The position numbers were made by a program, and so were the translations under genes. From an archaeon (GTDB lineage Archaea > Asgardarchaeota > Thorarchaeia > Thorarchaeales > Thorarchaeaceae), in assembly GCA_024275415.1 (NCBI GenBank), contig JAJRZD010000033.1, forward strand, positions 50,551 to 82,550: DNA of 32,000 bases, written 5' to 3'. This document shows positions 2 through 19,772 of the stretch, in pieces. The notes beneath the pieces were generated by a model. The model was not told where the DNA came from and ran no database searches. It saw nothing but the letters and a program-made list of their open reading frames with translations. Each line of letters begins with the position of its first letter. Positions within the stretch are counted from its first letter, which is position 1.

Positions 2-1045
2 GACGAGTTCTCTGGTGCACTTACCCGTATATTCGACAAGACCTCTCAGAAGGAGTTCATCCAGGGGTCTGGTGTCCACCCTATTATCGAGCCGGACATG
101 GGAGATCTCTATCGATTTGCACCATCTCTTCTTAGCGGCGAATCTTCAGTCATTGACTCGCTCAGGATTCCTGGAAAACTCAAATTCATCGAGTCCGGAC
201 CGGTTCGCATAGTGACAGAAGTGATCCAATCCCTCTCAGAATCGACTATCATCCAGAGGGTGACAGTCTATAGGTCTCTACCGCGAATCGACATCGAGGT
301 CGAGGTCAATTTCAGAGAAGAACACAAGAGATGCAGGTACGTGATTCCTACTCCCATCTTCACAGACTCGATAGTCACAGGCGCTCAGTTCTACGCTAAT
401 GAACGGCATATAGCTCCGTTTGATGCTGAGTCTGATGATCATGGTCACGGTGCTTTCTCAGCGTTGGATTGGGTGGATGTGCAAGGTCCCGATGCAGGAC
501 TGGGAGTCGCTGTCTTCGGGTTACATGAGTTCCAGTATCGCGATGGCAAGTTATCGATAACCATGCTCAGGAGTCCTTCTGTGCTCTCTCACGGCAAGGA
601 CGACGATGCAGTCCAATCAATGAGTGCAAGGGACCATTCGAGCCACACCTTTCGCATCTCTCTGTTCCCCCATAATGAGGACTGGAAGAAGACCGGCATC
701 CACCGTCAGGCCACAGAAACACGACTCCCCCTTATTGCTTCCGTGCTTGATGGGCACCCTGATGCAACCCCCATGTTTAGCGGACTAGTTTCTGTTGAAG
801 GTGTGCCTCTTGAACTGTCATCGTATCGACCAACAGAACACGAATCCGAGGTCATCATAAGGATGTATGAGGTTCTAGGTTCGAGTGGCACGAGCATACT
901 GAAGTTCAACAGGAGTATTGAGCGTGCGGTGTTGACTGACCTAGTCGGTAATGAGATTGGTGAGATCGCTGTGAACTCGAACATGGTATCCGTACCTGTC
1001 GATGGCTATTCCATCATCACATTGAAGGTACGACTGGGCACTTGA
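2..1045 (+). CDS. Alpha-mannosidase (GH38 family), C-terminal part; gene starts upstream of the window
   Basis: The frame is open from position 2 (DEFSGALTRIFDKTSQKEF...EPDMGDLY). It shows GH38 C-terminal beta-sandwich motifs: GPVRIVTEV, LPRIDIEVEVNFREEHKRCRYVIPT, WVDVQG...G+AVFGLHEF, LSITMLRSP, H+F..SLFPH and IIRMYE..G...YSIITLK. Confidence 0.8.
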   Translation, partial: DEFSGALTRIFDKTSQKEFIQGSGVHPIIEPDMGDLYRFAPSLLSGESSVIDSLRIPGKLKFIESGPVRIVTEVIQSLSESTIIQRVTVYRSLPRIDIEVEVNFREEHKRCRYVIPTPIFTDSIVTGAQFYANERHIAPFDAESDDHGHGAFSALDWVDVQGPDAGLGVAVFGLHEFQYRDGKLSITMLRSPSVLSHGKDDDAVQSMSARDHSSHTFRISLFPHNEDWKKTGIHRQATETRLPLIASVLDGHPDATPMFSGLVSVEGVPLELSSYRPTEHESEVIIRMYEVLGSSGTSILKFNRSIERAVLTDLVGNEIGEIAVNSNMVSVPVDGYSIITLKVRLGT

Positions 1046-1106
1046 GTGTAAGAAACTATGGCTCCGATATGCTTTTGAGGAATCCTGAAAACTAAGACAA
1101 AGTAGT

Positions 1107-1979
1107 GTGTCAAAGATGTCTGCGTTCTATCCTATCTCACCCCCCGTCCTGATAACCAACACAAGCTTCTCGGCGCAAGCAGGTGTGATGGACGAGATGT
1201 GGGCCTGCCGAGTTATCCGGGGAAAGAAGATCCTTATTGAGAAGACAATGCCCGAACTCAGTCTGGACAACTTTGTTGGTATCATCTACGGACACATCCG
1301 GGTCGAGGGACTCAGCAGGCACGCCGTGGCAATGTGCGCAGGTCGCCTGATGCAGTATGCTAGGAAATACCAGTCTTCCGGTGTTTGTCCTAATTATGAG
1401 GTTCCAGACTTTTATTATGACGATGGCGAGTCCTATATCGCAGTTGGTGATTCCAGCTCTTCAGAAGGTGGTAGTGTAGCTACTGCTGAGGTTCATGAAC
1501 TCCCGCATATGCCTGTTGGACACCTTCCCACAATCACCCCACAAGAGGGAAAGAATGCGTGGAAGGTCATTGCTGAAACTCACGGCGCAGCAGTATGTGA
1601 GTTTGCAATCTATGCAGCAGGTCTCTCAGAAGGACATCTTAAAGCGATGTTCGAGCAGTTCGCAGACCGACTTGTTCATTCTTGGATTGATCCTGAAGAC
1701 CCAATCATTCTTCCCATCAGGTTCGGTGAACTTATCTACAGCTGTTCTGGTGAGAGTCAGCTTCCCAAGACTGGGACGCTGAATGTGTCAGTAGAAACCC
1801 AAGGCTGTGTGCTACTGAAGATGACAAGGGAATTTGACCCTGACGGAAGTAGGATGCCCGCCGGCTATCCCTGTGCGTTCCATGAGATGATCGCACGTAA
1901 GGTGGCTCAGGTGACCGACCTGAAAATCGGGGTCAACACGTCCTCTACGGGCTGCATAGTGACCATGTCCATCGAGTAA
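1107..1979 (+). CDS. Hypothetical protein; C-terminal part resembles V4R/methanogen-output-type small-ligand-binding domains
   Basis: 290-aa ORF (GTG start, alternative ATG at 1116). The C-terminal Cys pattern GCV...YPCAFHEMIARKV...GCIVTMSI resembles the V4R-like fold. The family call is tentative. Confidence 0.5.
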   Translation: MSKMSAFYPISPPVLITNTSFSAQAGVMDEMWACRVIRGKKILIEKTMPELSLDNFVGIIYGHIRVEGLSRHAVAMCAGRLMQYARKYQSSGVCPNYEVPDFYYDDGESYIAVGDSSSSEGGSVATAEVHELPHMPVGHLPTITPQEGKNAWKVIAETHGAAVCEFAIYAAGLSEGHLKAMFEQFADRLVHSWIDPEDPIILPIRFGELIYSCSGESQLPKTGTLNVSVETQGCVLLKMTREFDPDGSRMPAGYPCAFHEMIARKVAQVTDLKIGVNTSSTGCIVTMSIE

Positions 1980-13510: not shown

Positions 13511-13911
13511 ATGAGTGCCACCCGAAAAATGATAGAAGTGATACTACCTCGTCATAGACGCTTATCTCGCAAGTTTGCAAAATGGTTGGCTAACAAAGGC
13601 TGTGATGGAATTAAGGTTGAGAGGGATCAGATTGATGTGAGCTTTCGAAATAAAGGTGTTACGTACATGGTAGAAATCAAGATCATCTACAAAGTTTCCA
13701 CGAAACATGCAATAAGAGAAGCAATTGGGCAAGTCCTTGAATACAATTATTATGAGAAACGAAAACCTGCTGACAATTGGATTATTTTGATAGATTCTGA
13801 ACCAACAGATGACAATATTCGATATCTGAAAAGGTCAAGAAAATGCACAGTTTGCCACTTAACTTATGTTGGCCAAAGGGTAGTGATTTCATTTTCATGC
13901 AGAAATTCTGA
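13511..13911 (+). pseudogene. PD-(D/E)XK endonuclease-like gene with a one-base frameshift at about 13829-13832
   Basis: PRHRRLSRKFAKWL, ERDQIDVSF...YMVEIK and IREAIGQVLEY are nuclease motifs. Shifting -1 at the AAAA run gives a protein-like tail KVKKMHSLPLNLCWPKGSDFIFMQKF* (stop 13909-13911), whereas the track's tail runs into the next gene. Confidence 0.65.
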
Positions 13912-14039
13912 CAGGGAGCGTATACTAAGGTGGTTAATGATCATTGAATTTATTCTCCCATCTCCTAAATCTTGCATGATTTTTTCATACAGTATTGGTT
14001 TTCTTTCATTTAGATGCATGACAATATTATACATAACAC

Positions 14040-15056
14040 ATGAAACTCTTAACAACTAATCAATGGGACTTGCCCGGATTCGGAGCAGGTACGAAACATC
14101 GTAGAATCGAAGGATATCTTCATGAGATGCGTATCTTCGTCAATAGTGTCTGTAACCACAGATGCAGGTTCCCAGAGGGGCAGACTTGGTGCCACTCACG
14201 AGATGGGATGGTAGGTTTGGGAAGAGACATGGATTCGGAGAGTTGGCTATACCTTCTGGAAGGACTGGATCGATGGAACATGCATTCATTGAAGATTGCA
14301 GGAATGGAACCAACGTTACACCCAGATCTACCAAGTCTGATATCTGCAACTCAGTCTTTCAATATGAAAGATATTAGTATGACCACAAACGGGTTCCGGT
14401 TGGTACCCATACTACCTAATCTTGTCGAAGCTGGATTGAACCGACTAACTGTATCACTACATACTTTGAATCCATCTATCTTCAAGACCATAACTGGCGG
14501 AAGCGTCTTTCCAGTCCGTGAAGCTCTAGATTTGTGCGCAGATTTTGGAATACCGACAAAGTTGAATGTAGTTCTTCTTCGTGGAGTTAATGATGACATT
14601 CGAAACCTTCTAGAATATGCATCAAGCCGCCAGTTTGAGATCAAATTATATACTCTTCTCTGGCAACCTCATTTCGAATCAGACTACAACCGATACTTCG
14701 TTTCATGGGATGAGGTGATTCAACCTCTATCTAATGATTGGAGAGGAATTGAACTGGTCGAATTCGTGAATTCTCAGCGGTATCGCTACACACTTGAAAC
14801 TGAGAATGGCATAAAGGTCACAACAAGTTGGTTTCAACACAAGACCAACAGCATATATAACATCTGCAGGAACTGCCCACTGAACTCTAGGTGTGAGGAG
14901 GGATTCATGGGTTACGGGTTTGAAACAGACTCAAATTTCTTAGTGAATCCGTGCTATCTTCGACCAGAACTACGGTTTGACCTGAAACCTTTCTTGGAAC
15001 GGAAGTATTGTAGTGTAGAGAAACGACTTGATCGGATTGCAAATGATGGAGGGTGA
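14040..15056 (+). CDS. MoaA-related radical SAM enzyme with an atypical CX3CX8C motif and a four-Cys C-terminal cluster motif
   Basis: MRIFVNSVCNHRCRFPEGQTWCH, KIAGMEP, ISMTTNG, AGLNRLTVSLHTL.P..F..ITG, KLNVVLLRGVND and C-terminal CRNCPLNSRCEEG...NPC all align with the MoaA scaffold. No other moa/moe genes are nearby. Confidence 0.85.
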   Translation: MKLLTTNQWDLPGFGAGTKHRRIEGYLHEMRIFVNSVCNHRCRFPEGQTWCHSRDGMVGLGRDMDSESWLYLLEGLDRWNMHSLKIAGMEPTLHPDLPSLISATQSFNMKDISMTTNGFRLVPILPNLVEAGLNRLTVSLHTLNPSIFKTITGGSVFPVREALDLCADFGIPTKLNVVLLRGVNDDIRNLLEYASSRQFEIKLYTLLWQPHFESDYNRYFVSWDEVIQPLSNDWRGIELVEFVNSQRYRYTLETENGIKVTTSWFQHKTNSIYNICRNCPLNSRCEEGFMGYGFETDSNFLVNPCYLRPELRFDLKPFLERKYCSVEKRLDRIANDGG

Positions 15057-15059
15057 AAG

Positions 15060-18000
15060 GTGAAACGCAAGAAAAGGAAGGAGTTCGACAAAGAAGATAT
15101 TCTCCAACTGCTCCGAGACCTCAATATTGATAGAGTAATAGAAGATGCTCATCTGCTTTTGGATTTGAATCGTGATGGGAAGTGGTCCATTCGACTTCTT
15201 TTGCTCTCCTACCTTCTGAAAGAGAATGAACTACAGACAATACGTGAGTTTGTGGATTTCGGATTCTCAAAGATTGCAGATGACTCGTTGTTTCAAAGGT
15301 TCAATTTCAAGAAAATTAGAAGTACTCTAGCCATGCCCGAGAAATGGTTTACAGATGAAGGTGGTAGTGAATACATTCCTGGTTCTGGCAATGCAAGAAG
15401 TATCCTGAGCAAAAGAACAGATCTGTTTACAAAGATTGGCTCAAGGTACGTACTAAATGAGAAAAATGGTAGCAGGGATCTTGCACTCGTTCTCTTCATA
15501 TTCCTGTTGAAAGCGCGCGGAATCGATTTAGAAAAGATTCCTGATGCAGATGAAGTGGAGAGTGGGTCAGTTTCAGAAGGAACATATCGGCAACTATTCT
15601 TGATTGATTCCACCGGCAAGCCAACGTCGCTTTCTCACAAAGTTCAAGACATTGTAGAAGACTGTCCAGTACTAATCCAAGCGGAGGAATTTGATAAAGA
15701 TACGAAGAACATTCTTCCACACATTCAGAGAACAATACTCGACTTGCTTCAGCGACATCACAGTGCATTCACAAACCCCCCGCATAAGAGGAAATTAGCA
15801 ATAATCTGTAAACCGATCTACAGCTTACCTGCTAGAAGCAAGAATGAGGAGTTCACTATCAACAGCTTGCTGACTCCTTCAACAAGCGAGAAGGAGCATT
15901 CCATGAATGGTGTGGATGGAGAAAGCATTGAAGATTCAGATACTAATCCGGTTCTGCTTACAGGTAGTGCGGGAAGTGGAAAGTCATTCTGGATGATCAA
16001 ACTAGCTTTGGACTTGTGGAATCATTCATTTAAGTCAGGCAGCCCTAACAGGAGTGACAGGGTTATCCCACTCTTCATAGGACTTGGATCTGTTTTTCTT
16101 GACAAGACTAAACACGGTGAATCTCTGGTATATGGCGAAGAAAAAGCTACACTATGGCACATAGATGAACCACCTGACGAGATTCCTCGTAGATCTTTGA
16201 TAGACCGGTTTCTAGGAGCAATGCTCAAGAAATCACCTCAATATATCCGGAAAATTCTCGACCGAGTAGATTGGCACGAGGTCAAGTTCGTATTTCTCTT
16301 AGATGGGTGGGATGAACTTGGTCGTCGAGAGAGGAAAGAGATGATACGGCTCATCAAGTCAAGTCCGATAAACCAACTACCTTGCATCATTAGTTCCAGA
16401 AACAAGGACAGCGATTTTGATAGTATAGAAATTGAGCATATCCGATTAGAGAAACCCACCATTGACAATTGTAAGGACTATCTGCGTTCTCGTGGAATGG
16501 AAGAAGAAGTTCTCGACAAGGTCAAAGAATGGTTCCCCGATCCCTCTCCTCTTGACTTGGAGATTTTAGGTCGAGTACCAAAGATGGAGGAGATCTCCAG
16601 TGGTCGCGTTCCCGTTTATAGAACGTGGATTGAACTGCAAATCTTGTCCTCTATCCGGAGCGATATTCTACAAGATTTACGGTCACGTTCTCAGATTGAC
16701 ACATTTATAGAAGGCGAGTTTTTCCGTGACAAATCGTTGAAGGACTGGATTCGAAGCCGAAACAATTCTCATTCGGTCTGGAGATGCCTGCCATATATTG
16801 CATATCTGCAGAAAGATGGACTAAATACATCTCTTAGTTATGATCAAGTCGTTCAAGATAATCCTCTATTGAAGGAGTTCCTAGAGAAGCGTTATGGCTC
16901 TGGAGATTCACCTCATCCTGAAATTTCAAGGAATAACTTGGTTCCGTATTTGTCCGCTGAGTATGTTTTCAGATCATATCTATCGGGAAAATACCCTCCT
17001 ATTAGAGGGGATTTACAAACCTTCAGATTCCTAGTTGAGATATTGTCATATGATTTAGAGCGGCGACATGATAGAGAATTAATTCCGAGAAGTGCCGAGT
17101 TGACGCCACTACAAACTGCTGCAATGATATGTCTTCAGGGAGAATCTGAAGCCTATACTAATGGAGCAAGAATTCGCCCATTTATCGCTGAGGGAAAGTC
17201 AGGGTCAACTCCTTTCTATACTGCGTTGTTTGATGGTTTTGTTAAGTATTGGAGCCAAACATCAACTTGCTGTGTACGAAGGAATATTCTTGATGCATTC
17301 ACGAAGTTAATTCGCACGTTTATAGTTGAAGAGAAAGAAGGAAACCCCGCACAGTTCATTGTCCCGTTATTAGAGATCGAACAGGCATTTGATTCTAATA
17401 CCTTCTCCAAGTTGATAACAGAAGAACCTGATACGTCTGTAGACCTAGAAATTTGTGATTCGTCAGGATACACACTCTATTATCTCGATTATGAGAAAGT
17501 CCAGGATTGGCTCTTACAGCTTTCCGTTAAGAAGCCTTGGTTGACTCCTTGGACTGTGAGAGTAGTAAAGCAAGAGAACCGATTGAAAATTCGGGATATA
17601 ATTGATGAAGCCCCTGATGAGTGGATGATTTACGAAGTTCTGAACTACGTTACGTCCGGATTCACATCAATTGACTCTGAATGGTTTGAGAGCATCCATA
17701 GAAATGCACTACGCCTTGAATCCGACTTGTTATGGAATTCCATTGCAATTGGCCTTCAAATGTCGCGCGGAGAGATAGACGACTACAGATTCTCGAAAAT
17801 ACTTGAAGTTCTGGGCTCTCCATGCGTTGAGGAAAGATGGAAGTTTGGATTGATAGTCAATTTGGGGAAAGTCAGACTGCCTGAACGATACACAAGAGAG
17901 GTATGGCGATCTACTGAGCAAGGGAAAATCGGTTTAAAATATGGCATAGCACTTTGCCTATCCCAGGAGCTACCAGATATAGCCATAGATGATATCCTTG

Positions 18001-19772
18001 ATGCAATTCGGGATAGCGAAGGATCCGGGTGGCTGAGGCTGCTATTACCGGGGATTCTCCAAGAGGAATATGATGAAGAAGAAATCAATAGTCGTTTTGT
18101 TCAGCTCAGTTATACCATCGTGCAGGCAATCACACGAGTTAGGGTTGTTCCATGGGATGAAGCCCGTTTAAATAGTTTAATTGATATGTGGTGGGATTCA
18201 AACCTCAAGACATTGGAAGATGCACTATCTCTAATCAAGACAATATCGAAGAAACGGAGAGAGAACCAGCTAGCTATTCTGGATTGGAGAGAAACTGAGG
18301 CTCTCAAACGACTAGTAGTGTGGTTAGGGAGTTCGCGGAAATCCACCAAGAAGAAGTTCTTCAGGAAACTCATAGAATCTGAGATTGATATGACGGATTT
18401 CTCAGTAAGAGAACATCTATATCCCATCTATCAGGAAATCGATAACAGAACAGATCTTGATGAACTCCTTGTTGCGCGTTATCCGCTTTACCATTGCAGT
18501 ATATCGATACTCCCCTTGTCAAGAGAGTCGTGGTTAACTCATATCGACAAAGTGGATCGTGAAGAACTCCTAGAAAGTAACTGGTTGATGGAGATATACC
18601 TCGAAGCCGGAAACGTGGCAACCATCGATGGAGCTATTAGCCTTCTCAATGAAATACAGAATCAAAGTGATTATCTAATAGAAACCTTCGACTCATTAGT
18701 AAAATGGGTTCTTCAAAGGCCCACTGATGAGATTGCACCGTTTATACTTCAACTCCTTAAGGAGAATCCTGCAACTACAAGGATGGGTTATTGGCGAAGA
18801 GTAAAGGAGAGTGGCCTGATTAAAGCTCTTGTTCCTGTTTCGAAAAACAGTCCTGAAGTGTATACTCGAATTCTGGAGATTGCAAAGGAAATACCAGGTC
18901 TTCAGATCGATAAACGTTCTGAGCTTCAATTCCTTTTCGAGGCACTAGCACCTGATGATCAAATGAGAGTTGTTCGGGCTCACTTTGAGAGATTTGTGGG
19001 GAAGGAGTCCTTCTTTTTCGGAAAGACCCTAGAAGAGATAATCCTGATTCATGGTAATAAGAACGATGTAGATTCACTCGTTCGCTCATTAAATAAAGAA
19101 CCAAGAAACCTTGGGAACATTTGGTCGAAGAATCCGGAACGGGCAACGGAAATCTCAAAGAGGCTATCCAATCCCTTCTCGTGTCTTCTATATGAAATTG
19201 ATATGATTGGAGGTTGGGCTGAGTACAAGAGGGAATTAGAGAAGAATCCAAAGAAGGTTGAGAAAGATCTACTGCTATTCCTCAAGAATGATTGGATCCA
19301 TAAAGGCTATGAATTCCTTGTCGCAGGAGGAGTCTTGAGAGAGGTTGCATTGAAGCATTGGAAGCGGATATTTCAAAGTGACAAGGCCTCGAGAAACGAG
19401 ATTGAGTTATACCTTGGTGCTCTCTTTGAACCCGATGATGATGAGATTGTTGAGTATGTAGCAAGCGAAGTCGATGAAATCCACAGAAACCTCAAAGAAA
19501 GGGAAAAGGAAATAGCAAAGGCATATCGTACCCCTTGGTATTCTTGGAATATCCCTGTTCTTGATAAAATTCAAAATAGACACGGTTATACTGGTCTTAA
19601 ACGATTGCTTATGAAAGTAAAAGATCAATATTCAATTGAAGGTGTAATGACATATCTGGTGAAATCGGCGAAAAAAGAAGGAATTCCAAAATCTGAGATT
19701 GTATCACTGGACGAATACCTCAAGCTAAGCAGGGCGATCAGATGGCATTTGATGAAGGAATACGAAGACTAA
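15060..19772 (+). CDS. Large STAND NTPase of the NACHT class (NLR/Avs-like architecture)
   Basis: Walker A VLLTGSAGSGKS (about 15963), Walker B FVFLLDGWDEL (about 16300), sensor CIISSR and a GxP-equivalent PSPLDLEIL. An ~290-aa N-terminal region and an ~1000-aa helical C-terminal region flank the NTPase. The GTG start lies 3 nt after the radical SAM stop, with GGAGGGTGA upstream. Confidence 0.88.
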   Translation: MKRKKRKEFDKEDILQLLRDLNIDRVIEDAHLLLDLNRDGKWSIRLLLLSYLLKENELQTIREFVDFGFSKIADDSLFQRFNFKKIRSTLAMPEKWFTDEGGSEYIPGSGNARSILSKRTDLFTKIGSRYVLNEKNGSRDLALVLFIFLLKARGIDLEKIPDADEVESGSVSEGTYRQLFLIDSTGKPTSLSHKVQDIVEDCPVLIQAEEFDKDTKNILPHIQRTILDLLQRHHSAFTNPPHKRKLAIICKPIYSLPARSKNEEFTINSLLTPSTSEKEHSMNGVDGESIEDSDTNPVLLTGSAGSGKSFWMIKLALDLWNHSFKSGSPNRSDRVIPLFIGLGSVFLDKTKHGESLVYGEEKATLWHIDEPPDEIPRRSLIDRFLGAMLKKSPQYIRKILDRVDWHEVKFVFLLDGWDELGRRERKEMIRLIKSSPINQLPCIISSRNKDSDFDSIEIEHIRLEKPTIDNCKDYLRSRGMEEEVLDKVKEWFPDPSPLDLEILGRVPKMEEISSGRVPVYRTWIELQILSSIRSDILQDLRSRSQIDTFIEGEFFRDKSLKDWIRSRNNSHSVWRCLPYIAYLQKDGLNTSLSYDQVVQDNPLLKEFLEKRYGSGDSPHPEISRNNLVPYLSAEYVFRSYLSGKYPPIRGDLQTFRFLVEILSYDLERRHDRELIPRSAELTPLQTAAMICLQGESEAYTNGARIRPFIAEGKSGSTPFYTALFDGFVKYWSQTSTCCVRRNILDAFTKLIRTFIVEEKEGNPAQFIVPLLEIEQAFDSNTFSKLITEEPDTSVDLEICDSSGYTLYYLDYEKVQDWLLQLSVKKPWLTPWTVRVVKQENRLKIRDIIDEAPDEWMIYEVLNYVTSGFTSIDSEWFESIHRNALRLESDLLWNSIAIGLQMSRGEIDDYRFSKILEVLGSPCVEERWKFGLIVNLGKVRLPERYTREVWRSTEQGKIGLKYGIALCLSQELPDIAIDDILDAIRDSEGSGWLRLLLPGILQEEYDEEEINSRFVQLSYTIVQAITRVRVVPWDEARLNSLIDMWWDSNLKTLEDALSLIKTISKKRRENQLAILDWRETEALKRLVVWLGSSRKSTKKKFFRKLIESEIDMTDFSVREHLYPIYQEIDNRTDLDELLVARYPLYHCSISILPLSRESWLTHIDKVDREELLESNWLMEIYLEAGNVATIDGAISLLNEIQNQSDYLIETFDSLVKWVLQRPTDEIAPFILQLLKENPATTRMGYWRRVKESGLIKALVPVSKNSPEVYTRILEIAKEIPGLQIDKRSELQFLFEALAPDDQMRVVRAHFERFVGKESFFFGKTLEEIILIHGNKNDVDSLVRSLNKEPRNLGNIWSKNPERATEISKRLSNPFSCLLYEIDMIGGWAEYKRELEKNPKKVEKDLLLFLKNDWIHKGYEFLVAGGVLREVALKHWKRIFQSDKASRNEIELYLGALFEPDDDEIVEYVASEVDEIHRNLKEREKEIAKAYRTPWYSWNIPVLDKIQNRHGYTGLKRLLMKVKDQYSIEGVMTYLVKSAKKEGIPKSEIVSLDEYLKLSRAIRWHLMKEYED

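Follow-up and report, generated by a model that had tools for sequence, protein, structure and literature searches.

The window analysed here is a 32,000-nucleotide stretch of a Thorarchaeaceae genome (Asgardarchaeota; assembly GCA_024275415.1, contig JAJRZD010000033.1, positions 50,551 to 82,550). It contains a gene for a radical S-adenosylmethionine (SAM) enzyme, hereafter rSAM, which as judged from its sequence is a descendant of MoaA that carries two iron-sulfur clusters, has left molybdenum-cofactor synthesis and is predicted to be functional. Because the gene is followed by that of a giant NLR-like ATPase and lies in a defence island, rSAM is most likely the enzyme half of an antiviral system and not a cofactor gene; whether it is, more specifically, the effector of a two-gene, NLR-like defence system and works by modifying nucleotides is a question on which we consider the case evenly balanced. 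What is probably new is an undescribed cluster motif in a MoaA-descended radical SAM enzyme of a probable NLR-like defence module. The features of the gene are as follows:

14040..15056, + strand: rSAM gene, a MoaA-derived paralogue of 338 aa (Pfam Radical_SAM, 75.6 bits)
14151..14192, + strand: expanded SAM-cluster motif C38-x3-C42-x8-C51 (CNHRC-RFPEGQTW-C), read directly from the DNA
14301..14312, + strand: GMEP replacing the SAM-binding GGEP, residues 88-91, invariant in the close family
14865..14954, + strand: auxiliary motif C276-x2-C279-x5-C285-x19-C305, read directly and from alignment
15048..15056, + strand: terminal Gly-Gly codons and stop (the protein ends DGG; stop codon at 15054-15056)

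Motifs, fold and pocket of the enzyme

Membership in the radical SAM superfamily is indicated by Pfam (PF04055, 75.6 bits against a gathering threshold of 29.5), and the partial TIM-barrel fold and the three cysteines of the beta1-alpha1 loop also fit: C38, C42 and C51 are kept in all full-length close homologues, though their spacing is non-canonical. The original prediction had described a CX3CX8C loop, GMEP, a CX2CX5CX19C site devoid of RxR and a terminal GG, each of which, with its coordinates, is borne out by the DNA reading (C38 is TGT at 14151, C51 is TGC at 14190-14192). It had also stated that the SAM-cluster motif is six residues longer than the canonical one, and alignment with MoaA indeed puts six extra residues between the second and third cysteines; the aromatic residue directly before the third cysteine (W50) is retained as in the canonical CX3CxΦC. 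At the other end of the gene, GGAGGGTGA provides both the Gly-Gly-stop of rSAM and a Shine-Dalgarno-like element for the next gene, and G337/G338 align with the GG of bacterial MoaA.

In public databases this open reading frame (ORF; P0002, 282 aa), like those of three relatives, is called from M57, which leaves out strand beta-1 and the whole Cys loop (window 14040-14207). We place the true start at M1 (ATG at 14040) and not at M57, because the 56 N-terminal codons are conserved at the protein level in homologues. A TTTAGAT at 14009-14015, 25-31 nt 5' of this ATG, is a candidate TATA box of archaeal type, in which case the transcript would be leaderless or have a short leader.

Close homologues are rare: only eight were found among 5.8 billion clusters, with E-values down to 5e-79, the next matches being ordinary MoaA at ~1e-20. 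All five full-length ones, which come from independent assemblies, keep CX3CX8C, GMEP, the four C-terminal cysteines and a near-terminal GG. The original prediction had raised the possibility that the loop insertion is private or a sequencing artefact; conservation across independent assemblies rules out such an origin for the motifs, which also go far beyond chance.

MoaA (1TV7, 1TV8, 2FB3) is the best match to rSAM in both sequence and structure, sharing the same barrel, the C-terminal auxiliary-cluster domain and the archaeal-type VSLHTL motif. The AlphaFold2 model of rSAM, built from a 63-sequence alignment, has a predicted local distance difference test score (pLDDT) of 90.1 and a predicted TM score of 0.89, with the Cys loop at ~86-91. 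Foldseek returns MoaA as the top solved structure (TM 0.64-0.68), and VIA aligns the model to MoaA 1tv7_A over 281 residues with Z 24.3 and a root-mean-square deviation of 3.4 Å, which places it more than 2 Z units above the structures that follow, SuiB (21.9), GDGT-MAS (21.2), viperin (20.4) and anSME (20.0). The comparison with MoaA and viperin that the original prediction had suggested as a check therefore gives a MoaA-like fold, with viperin lower. The differences from MoaA are nonetheless extensive: where MoaA has CX3CX2C, GGEP and CX2CX13C followed by RxR, rSAM has CX3CX8C, GMEP and CX2CX5CX19C without RxR; the RFIEF of MoaA is KLYxLLWQP in rSAM, and the tail before the GG is ~40 residues shorter. 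Profile scores of rSAM amount to about one third of the MoaA cut-offs, namely 122.9 against 325 bits for moaA_archaeal, the best curated family, 113.4 against 284 and 111.1 against 231 (curated models TIGR02668/TIGR02666/NF001199).

These low scores, together with a genuine MoaA elsewhere in the genome, agree with the claim of the original prediction that rSAM is not the housekeeping enzyme converting GTP to 3',8-cH2GTP. The genuine MoaA of this genome (3.5 Mb, 92.9% complete) is a 324-aa protein scoring 345 bits on another contig (L005, G000 contig C122, 368-2424), with CX3CX2C, GGEA and CX2C-TRLR-X..C and no terminal GG, its end reading GKSK. rSAM was accordingly rejected as the housekeeping MoaA of the cell. 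Directly upstream of the genuine moaA is the gene of a TOBE-domain ABC ATPase, which presumably belongs to a molybdate/tungstate importer.

Alignments (MAFFT with 55 MoaA-type sequences; HMMER to S. aureus MoaA) suggest that rSAM keeps the phosphate/ribose side of the MoaA pocket and has lost its guanine-reading side; this follows from the residue mapping, in which positions of the R17 type are retained and R266/R268 are gone. R17, R71, T102, S126, K163, N165 and R192 of MoaA correspond to R31, K85, T115, S139, K174, N176 and K202 of rSAM, whereas K69 and N124 are not kept (S83 and T137). The MoaA-type triphosphate-binding basic residues (R31, K85, K174, K202) are in this way present alongside G337-G338, and the MRIF, KIA and TKLN stretches to which the original prediction had drawn attention map onto basic positions of MoaA. 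Some of the MoaA pocket residues have roles in binding the triphosphate. On the guanine side, C276, C279 and C305 align with C261, C264 and C278 of S. aureus MoaA, while a 12-residue insertion (the PLNSRCEEGFMGYGFE region, with C285 and an EEG..GYG element) replaces the R266-x-R268 segment, such that the two guanine-binding arginines are absent. In MoaA, R17, R266, R268 and the C-terminal GG are all essential for GTP-triggered SAM cleavage (PMC12625886).

The inserted C285, conserved in 90% or more of the rows of the wider-family alignment, probably closes the auxiliary cluster, and a fully ligated cluster would, as in BtrN and anSME, pass on electrons instead of binding guanine as a Lewis acid. 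Such a site invites another explanation: rSAM would be a protein or peptide maturase that modifies the STAND protein encoded next to it, or another polypeptide, for example by crosslinking, epimerisation or Cys/Ser oxidation, by means of a Twitch/SPASM-like cluster, the modified protein depending on this change to work. A four-Cys CX2CX5C...C pattern does recall the closed auxiliary sites of Twitch/SPASM enzymes (BtrN, anSME, SuiB), which have four auxiliary cysteines at the same CX2CX5C spacing and structural Z scores of 15-22, SuiB and anSME being near neighbours of the model; tight coupling of the rSAM gene to that of one large protein, with no third conserved gene, also speaks for a maturase. 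Still, MoaA remains the best match, the phosphate-binding residues are kept and are of MoaA type, and the gene to which a sister-clade member is coupled encodes a nucleotide kinase and not a precursor peptide. SPASM-family models match rSAM residues ~30-200 only and none matches the C-terminal part, of the SPASM seven-Cys motif CX2CX5CX3C only CX2CX5C is present, and rSAM lacks both the CX3C extension (a Phe occupies the X3C position) and a second auxiliary cluster. On balance we find a maturase unlikely.

The wider family and its circularly permuted sister clade

A profile search of 1.84 billion representatives, in which clusters group proteins at least 50% identical, recovered a wider family whose full-length members form our census: 40 representatives with an expanded Cys loop and 88 with a canonical, MoaA-type loop. 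The spacer between the second and third cysteines of the expanded loop ranges from 8 to 14 residues, being 8 in 11 proteins, 9 in 22, 10 in three, 13 in three and 14 in one. The two groups differ sharply at the other motifs. GGE is found in 1 of the 40 expanded-loop proteins against 88 of the 88 canonical ones, G/A(M/L/K)E(P/A) in 38/40 against 7/88, and CX2CX4-5C in 40/40 against 9/88; RxR following CX2C occurs in none of the 40 and in 73/88, and GG as the end of the protein in 2/40 and 54/88. Given the distribution of GGE, loss of the second GGEP glycine and insertion into the loop covary almost perfectly, suggesting that the two changes may be structurally coupled around the SAM cluster. 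Only in the Asgard subgroup do the proteins retain a GG near the C-terminus, often with 1-3 more residues behind it, which makes a MoaA-like C-terminal gate in rSAM possible but not certain.

In a maximum-likelihood tree of the collinear core (63 sequences, LG+C20+F+G4 with posterior mean site frequencies, PMSF), the 40 expanded-loop proteins are split from MoaA with ultrafast bootstrap (UFBoot) and SH-aLRT supports of 100 and 98, and the Asgard subgroup is supported at 96/92. The public names of family members are either "radical SAM protein" or, wrongly, "cyclic pyranopterin phosphate synthase". Long proteins with several radical SAM domains among the matches were rejected as members on account of their canonical motifs. 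No fused or longer form of rSAM was found, which is weak evidence; two pattern scans of viral contigs gave no family member, and tblastn searches of plasmids with P0001, P0129 and P0135 recovered nothing but ordinary MoaA, in one case encoded in a molybdoenzyme operon.

Nine canonical-loop proteins (P0159, P0170, P0214, P0224, P0232, P0236, P0253, P0266 and P0271) combine CX3CX2C and GGEP with the CX2CX4-5C auxiliary pattern, and in the tree P0159 and P0170 fall with MoaA, each on a long branch. This suggests that the change at the auxiliary site preceded the one in the SAM-cluster loop, the placement of P0159 and P0170 being unsure; in evolution the nine may stand between MoaA and the expanded-loop clade.

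Twenty proteins (P0136, P0139, P0141, P0144-P0146, P0148, P0153, P0160, P0168, P0173, P0177, P0183, P0189, P0192, P0195, P0210, P0225, P0229 and P0237; alignment A4) form a monophyletic sister clade (UFBoot 100, SH-aLRT 99) that is circularly permuted: these proteins begin just before G/A(L/M)EP and carry strand beta-1 and CN.xC.FP....WC at the extreme C-terminus. They share with rSAM the CX3CX8-14C loop (C.FP...WC), G/A(L/M)EP and the four-Cys auxiliary motif, but they are bacterial and lack the terminal GG, and the member whose locus was read pairs with a nucleotide kinase instead of a NACHT-like nucleoside triphosphatase (NTPase). In that locus (L038 1-10450), on plasmid pNDM1_010055 of Acinetobacter sp. 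WCHA55 (NZ_CP032284.1), the permuted gene overlaps by 4 nt the gene for a 173-aa kinase that is thymidylate/cytidylate-kinase-like and matches PADLOC VakA (5e-19) and PDC-M51B (3e-24). The operon also encodes an AAA protein whose gene, 3825 nt in the plasmid record, is truncated by the end of the locus, a 720-aa PIN protein, a hypothetical protein, a ClpB-like AAA_2 ATPase, a small Fer4_12 radical SAM protein (193 aa) and a 162-aa protein of no named family. It resembles a nucleotide-modifying cassette of the defence type, carried by an NDM-1 plasmid, and a nucleotide kinase beside a relative of rSAM fits a nucleotide substrate. None of the 182 genomes around a bacterial handle contained a member of the permuted clade. 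The tie between a permuted bacterial clade and a non-permuted archaeal sister group offers a comparison for studying the origin of permutation.

The breadth of this conservation bears on the idea that rSAM is a catalytically dead relic, in which the stretched loop and GMEP would have abolished SAM cleavage and left a nucleotide- or SAM-binding regulatory subunit. We found no paper describing such a radical SAM motif, and neither CX3CX8C nor GMEP has been experimentally validated, which favours the idea; against it, the seven cysteines, the aromatic residue before the third, TTNG, VSLH and KLNVV are conserved over ~40 clusters less than 50% identical and are kept through circular permutation, which argues for selection on both clusters, and the Cys loop is modelled with confidence. 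A dead enzyme is therefore highly improbable in our view. Non-canonical SAM motifs are known from QueE (CX14CX2C), HmdB (CX5CX2C) and ThiC (CX2CX4C), all of which keep SAM cleavage; in these enzymes the insertion lies between the first and second cysteines or the motif is in another domain. Our literature search found no radical SAM enzyme described with a spacer of 8-14 residues between the second and third cysteines, nor a radical SAM enzyme that is permuted, nor a NACHT protein that has a MoaA-like enzyme as its partner.

The NACHT-like partner and a possible role in immunity

The partner gene lies as follows, together with its nucleotide-binding motifs, which were read directly and are invariant in alignment A5:

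15060..19772, + strand: partner, a 1570-aa NACHT-like STAND NTPase with a GTG start, beginning 3 nt after the rSAM stop
15963..15986, + strand: Walker A GSAGSGKS of the partner, aa 302-309
16290..16316, + strand: Walker B VFLLDGWDE of the partner, aa 411-419

A sensor-1-like CIISSR (aa 442-447) follows the Walker B, and GSAGSGKS, FLLDGWDE and IISSR are invariant in seven partner homologues, only nine homologues having been found in all. The hhhhDGxDE form of the Walker B is what we take to be the NACHT type. Pfam NACHT reaches 24.3 bits against a cut-off of 26.7 and spans the Walker A region only, and the nearest ESM-Atlas clusters are NACHT/SMEK/NCAB2 proteins. The AlphaFold2 model of residues 1-720 was discarded as unusable (pLDDT 40.8), and neither a profile search of PDB sequences nor PADLOC or NCBIfam gives a match, which is why we call the partner NACHT-like with moderate confidence only. 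Its N-terminal ~290 aa match nothing, its C-terminal region is long and helical, and no DNA-binding domain was detected in it. On two contig ends of another genome (G352 contigs C36 and C240; L037 1-2486 and L033) lies a split, distant relative of the partner (23-26% identity) that has no rSAM upstream; what precedes it is a very acidic 356-aa protein of no recognised family and an 88-aa ORF, an arrangement that hints that the accessory gene of the partner can be swapped.

Gene context was read directly at three Asgard loci (the study locus, L001 and L027) and, for relatives, on one plasmid and one short metagenome contig. The rSAM gene is followed immediately by the NTPase gene at all three Asgard loci, with a gap of 3 nt here and an overlap of 1-4 nt in L001 (G336) and L027 (G313), an arrangement from which the two genes are predicted to be translationally coupled. 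In L001 the two proteins are 55% (rSAM) and 42% (NTPase) identical to those of the study pair, and homologues of both were matched to five shared contigs, the three loci included. The flanks of the pair are wholly different in each of the three genomes and no third gene is conserved with it. Of 400 genomes of the Asgard phylum, 3 carry the pair, and none of six congeners does. In the study genome it lies inside a low-GC island (0.40 against 0.50) whose other genes include one for a McrB-like AAA_5 ATPase, a McrC-family gene, a type II methyltransferase and a prokaryotic Argonaute (pAgo), whereas in a Thorarchaeota metagenome-assembled genome (L027 1-8403, G313 contig C10) its neighbours include a 917-aa Schlafen/AlbA_2 protein, a PIN protein and a HEPN protein, making this another defence-type island.

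This setting also bears on a non-immune alternative, an alternative cofactor or secondary-metabolite pathway (leading, for instance, to a pterin or deazapurine-type product) with a STAND-type regulator acting in expression or assembly. Descent from MoaA, the label of cyclic pyranopterin phosphate synthase that JGI gives to relatives and the flanks of L001, which are not defence genes, can be read in its favour. The three loci, however, have no moaB/C/D/E or other pathway genes beside rSAM; the pair is patchy and absent from congeners, and at the study locus it sits in a low-GC island with McrBC, a methyltransferase and pAgo, next to a partner devoid of a detectable DNA-binding domain. We consider a metabolic role very unlikely.

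A further alternative reverses the roles of the two proteins: rSAM would be a signal maker that acts upstream of the NACHT-like NTPase or primes it, its nucleotide-derived product being the ligand, and the N-terminal 290 aa of the partner would be the true effector. The evidence for a nucleotide substrate serves this explanation equally, the unmatched N-terminal region could be an effector, and the distant partner relative in G352 does without rSAM. Yet we found no precedent in the literature for a STAND ligand made by a radical SAM enzyme, and radical SAM turnover, slow and dependent on a reductant, would poorly fit signalling. A signalling function seems to us quite unlikely.

In the reading that we favour, with rSAM as effector arm, rSAM and NTPase would form a mobile two-gene cassette whose products are made together. 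The NTPase would sense infection, by analogy with Avs/NLR-like systems and viperin, and then switch on or scaffold rSAM. The enzyme would bind a nucleoside triphosphate differently from MoaA, the invariant E286, E287 and E295 of the insertion being candidate readers of the base or ribose, and the target of the 5'-deoxyadenosyl radical would be the ribose or base of a nucleotide that is not GTP bound as in MoaA, the product being a modified nucleotide that could poison or starve viral nucleic-acid synthesis. Substrate class, the role of C285, immune function and order of events are what we infer here. The original prediction had envisaged new chemistry on a nucleotide, and this stands in part: the enzyme is not the housekeeping MoaA, basic positions are kept and the kinase beside relatives fits a nucleotide substrate, the substrate class itself being one of these inferred points. 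A fuller proposal, which we put forward tentatively, is that of an Asgard immune module in which a NACHT sensor controls a MoaA-derived enzyme making an antiviral nucleotide distinct from the 3'-deoxy-3',4'-didehydronucleoside triphosphates (ddhNTPs) of viperin; immunity would then have recruited the MoaA/viperin scaffold a second time and independently, through a clade with a remodelled CX3CX8-14C loop of which one branch tolerates permutation.

Several observations weigh against rSAM as a nucleotide-modifying immune effector. A closed four-Cys auxiliary site and the high structural scores of SuiB and anSME also suit peptide or protein substrates. The identity of the partner draws on motifs, a sub-threshold Pfam match and language-model neighbours, and the kinase link comes from one locus, read in the permuted sister clade and not in the Asgard subgroup. 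The neighbours of the pair in L001 (MatE, histidine phosphatases) are not defence genes, and among known defence models (PADLOC-DB v2) the partner has no match and rSAM only weak ones to pVip.

One known relative in function would be viperin (pVip in prokaryotes, with or without an associated nucleotide kinase, VakA), also a radical SAM enzyme that is related to MoaA, occurs in defence islands, as rSAM does, and acts on nucleoside triphosphates. It differs from rSAM in having the canonical CX3CX2C and no auxiliary cluster, and it works without a STAND partner; rSAM scores 37.2 bits against a threshold of 180 on the viperin model NF038283, matches PADLOC pVip at 1.5e-11 over the core and has the four-Cys site. 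Viperins are common in Asgard archaea, and it has been proposed that eukaryotes obtained their viperin from this lineage (PMC11291487). Radical SAM enzymes known to act in defence are viperin, Ophion OpnA (bioRxiv 10.1101/2025.09.30.679545) and HXS (PMC13128918), none of which is known to be paired with a STAND protein. The partner, for its part, resembles Avs/bNACHT proteins, which are giant P-loop proteins of patchy distribution found in defence islands, in its NACHT-type Walker A/B, sensor-1 and long helical C-terminal region; in those systems, however, the enzyme is fused to the NTPase, whereas here the activity is encoded by a separate upstream gene.

Should these readings hold, a radical SAM motif (an 8-14-residue spacer between the second and third cysteines plus a lost second Gly) is being missed by motif annotation and by some gene callers, and nature would have provided a test of closing the open, substrate-binding auxiliary iron of MoaA with a fourth cysteine. 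The system could further yield a new nucleotide-derived product, possibly antiviral, and among the archaea most closely related to eukaryotes it would link an NLR-like NTPase to a radical enzyme encoded by a gene of its own.

Neighbouring regulators and reading frames

On a short metagenome contig (L014), an expanded-loop member of the P0128 type is divergently adjoined by a Csa3-like regulator with CARF and winged helix-turn-helix domains (Csa3_N, 34.5 bits), the two genes lying at 210-848 (-) and 944-1660 (+).

Upstream of rSAM in the window, a 182-aa ORF (13511-14059) gives a weak PD-(D/E)XK signal (PDDEXK_9, 16.9 bits), and its last 20 nt overlap the rSAM start. This ORF and the methyltransferase were considered as parts of the cassette and rejected, neither being conserved at the other loci, where the ORF is not found beside the pair. 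Its C-terminal third resembles read-through, and the ORF may be what is left of a nuclease that partnered the divergent methyltransferase.

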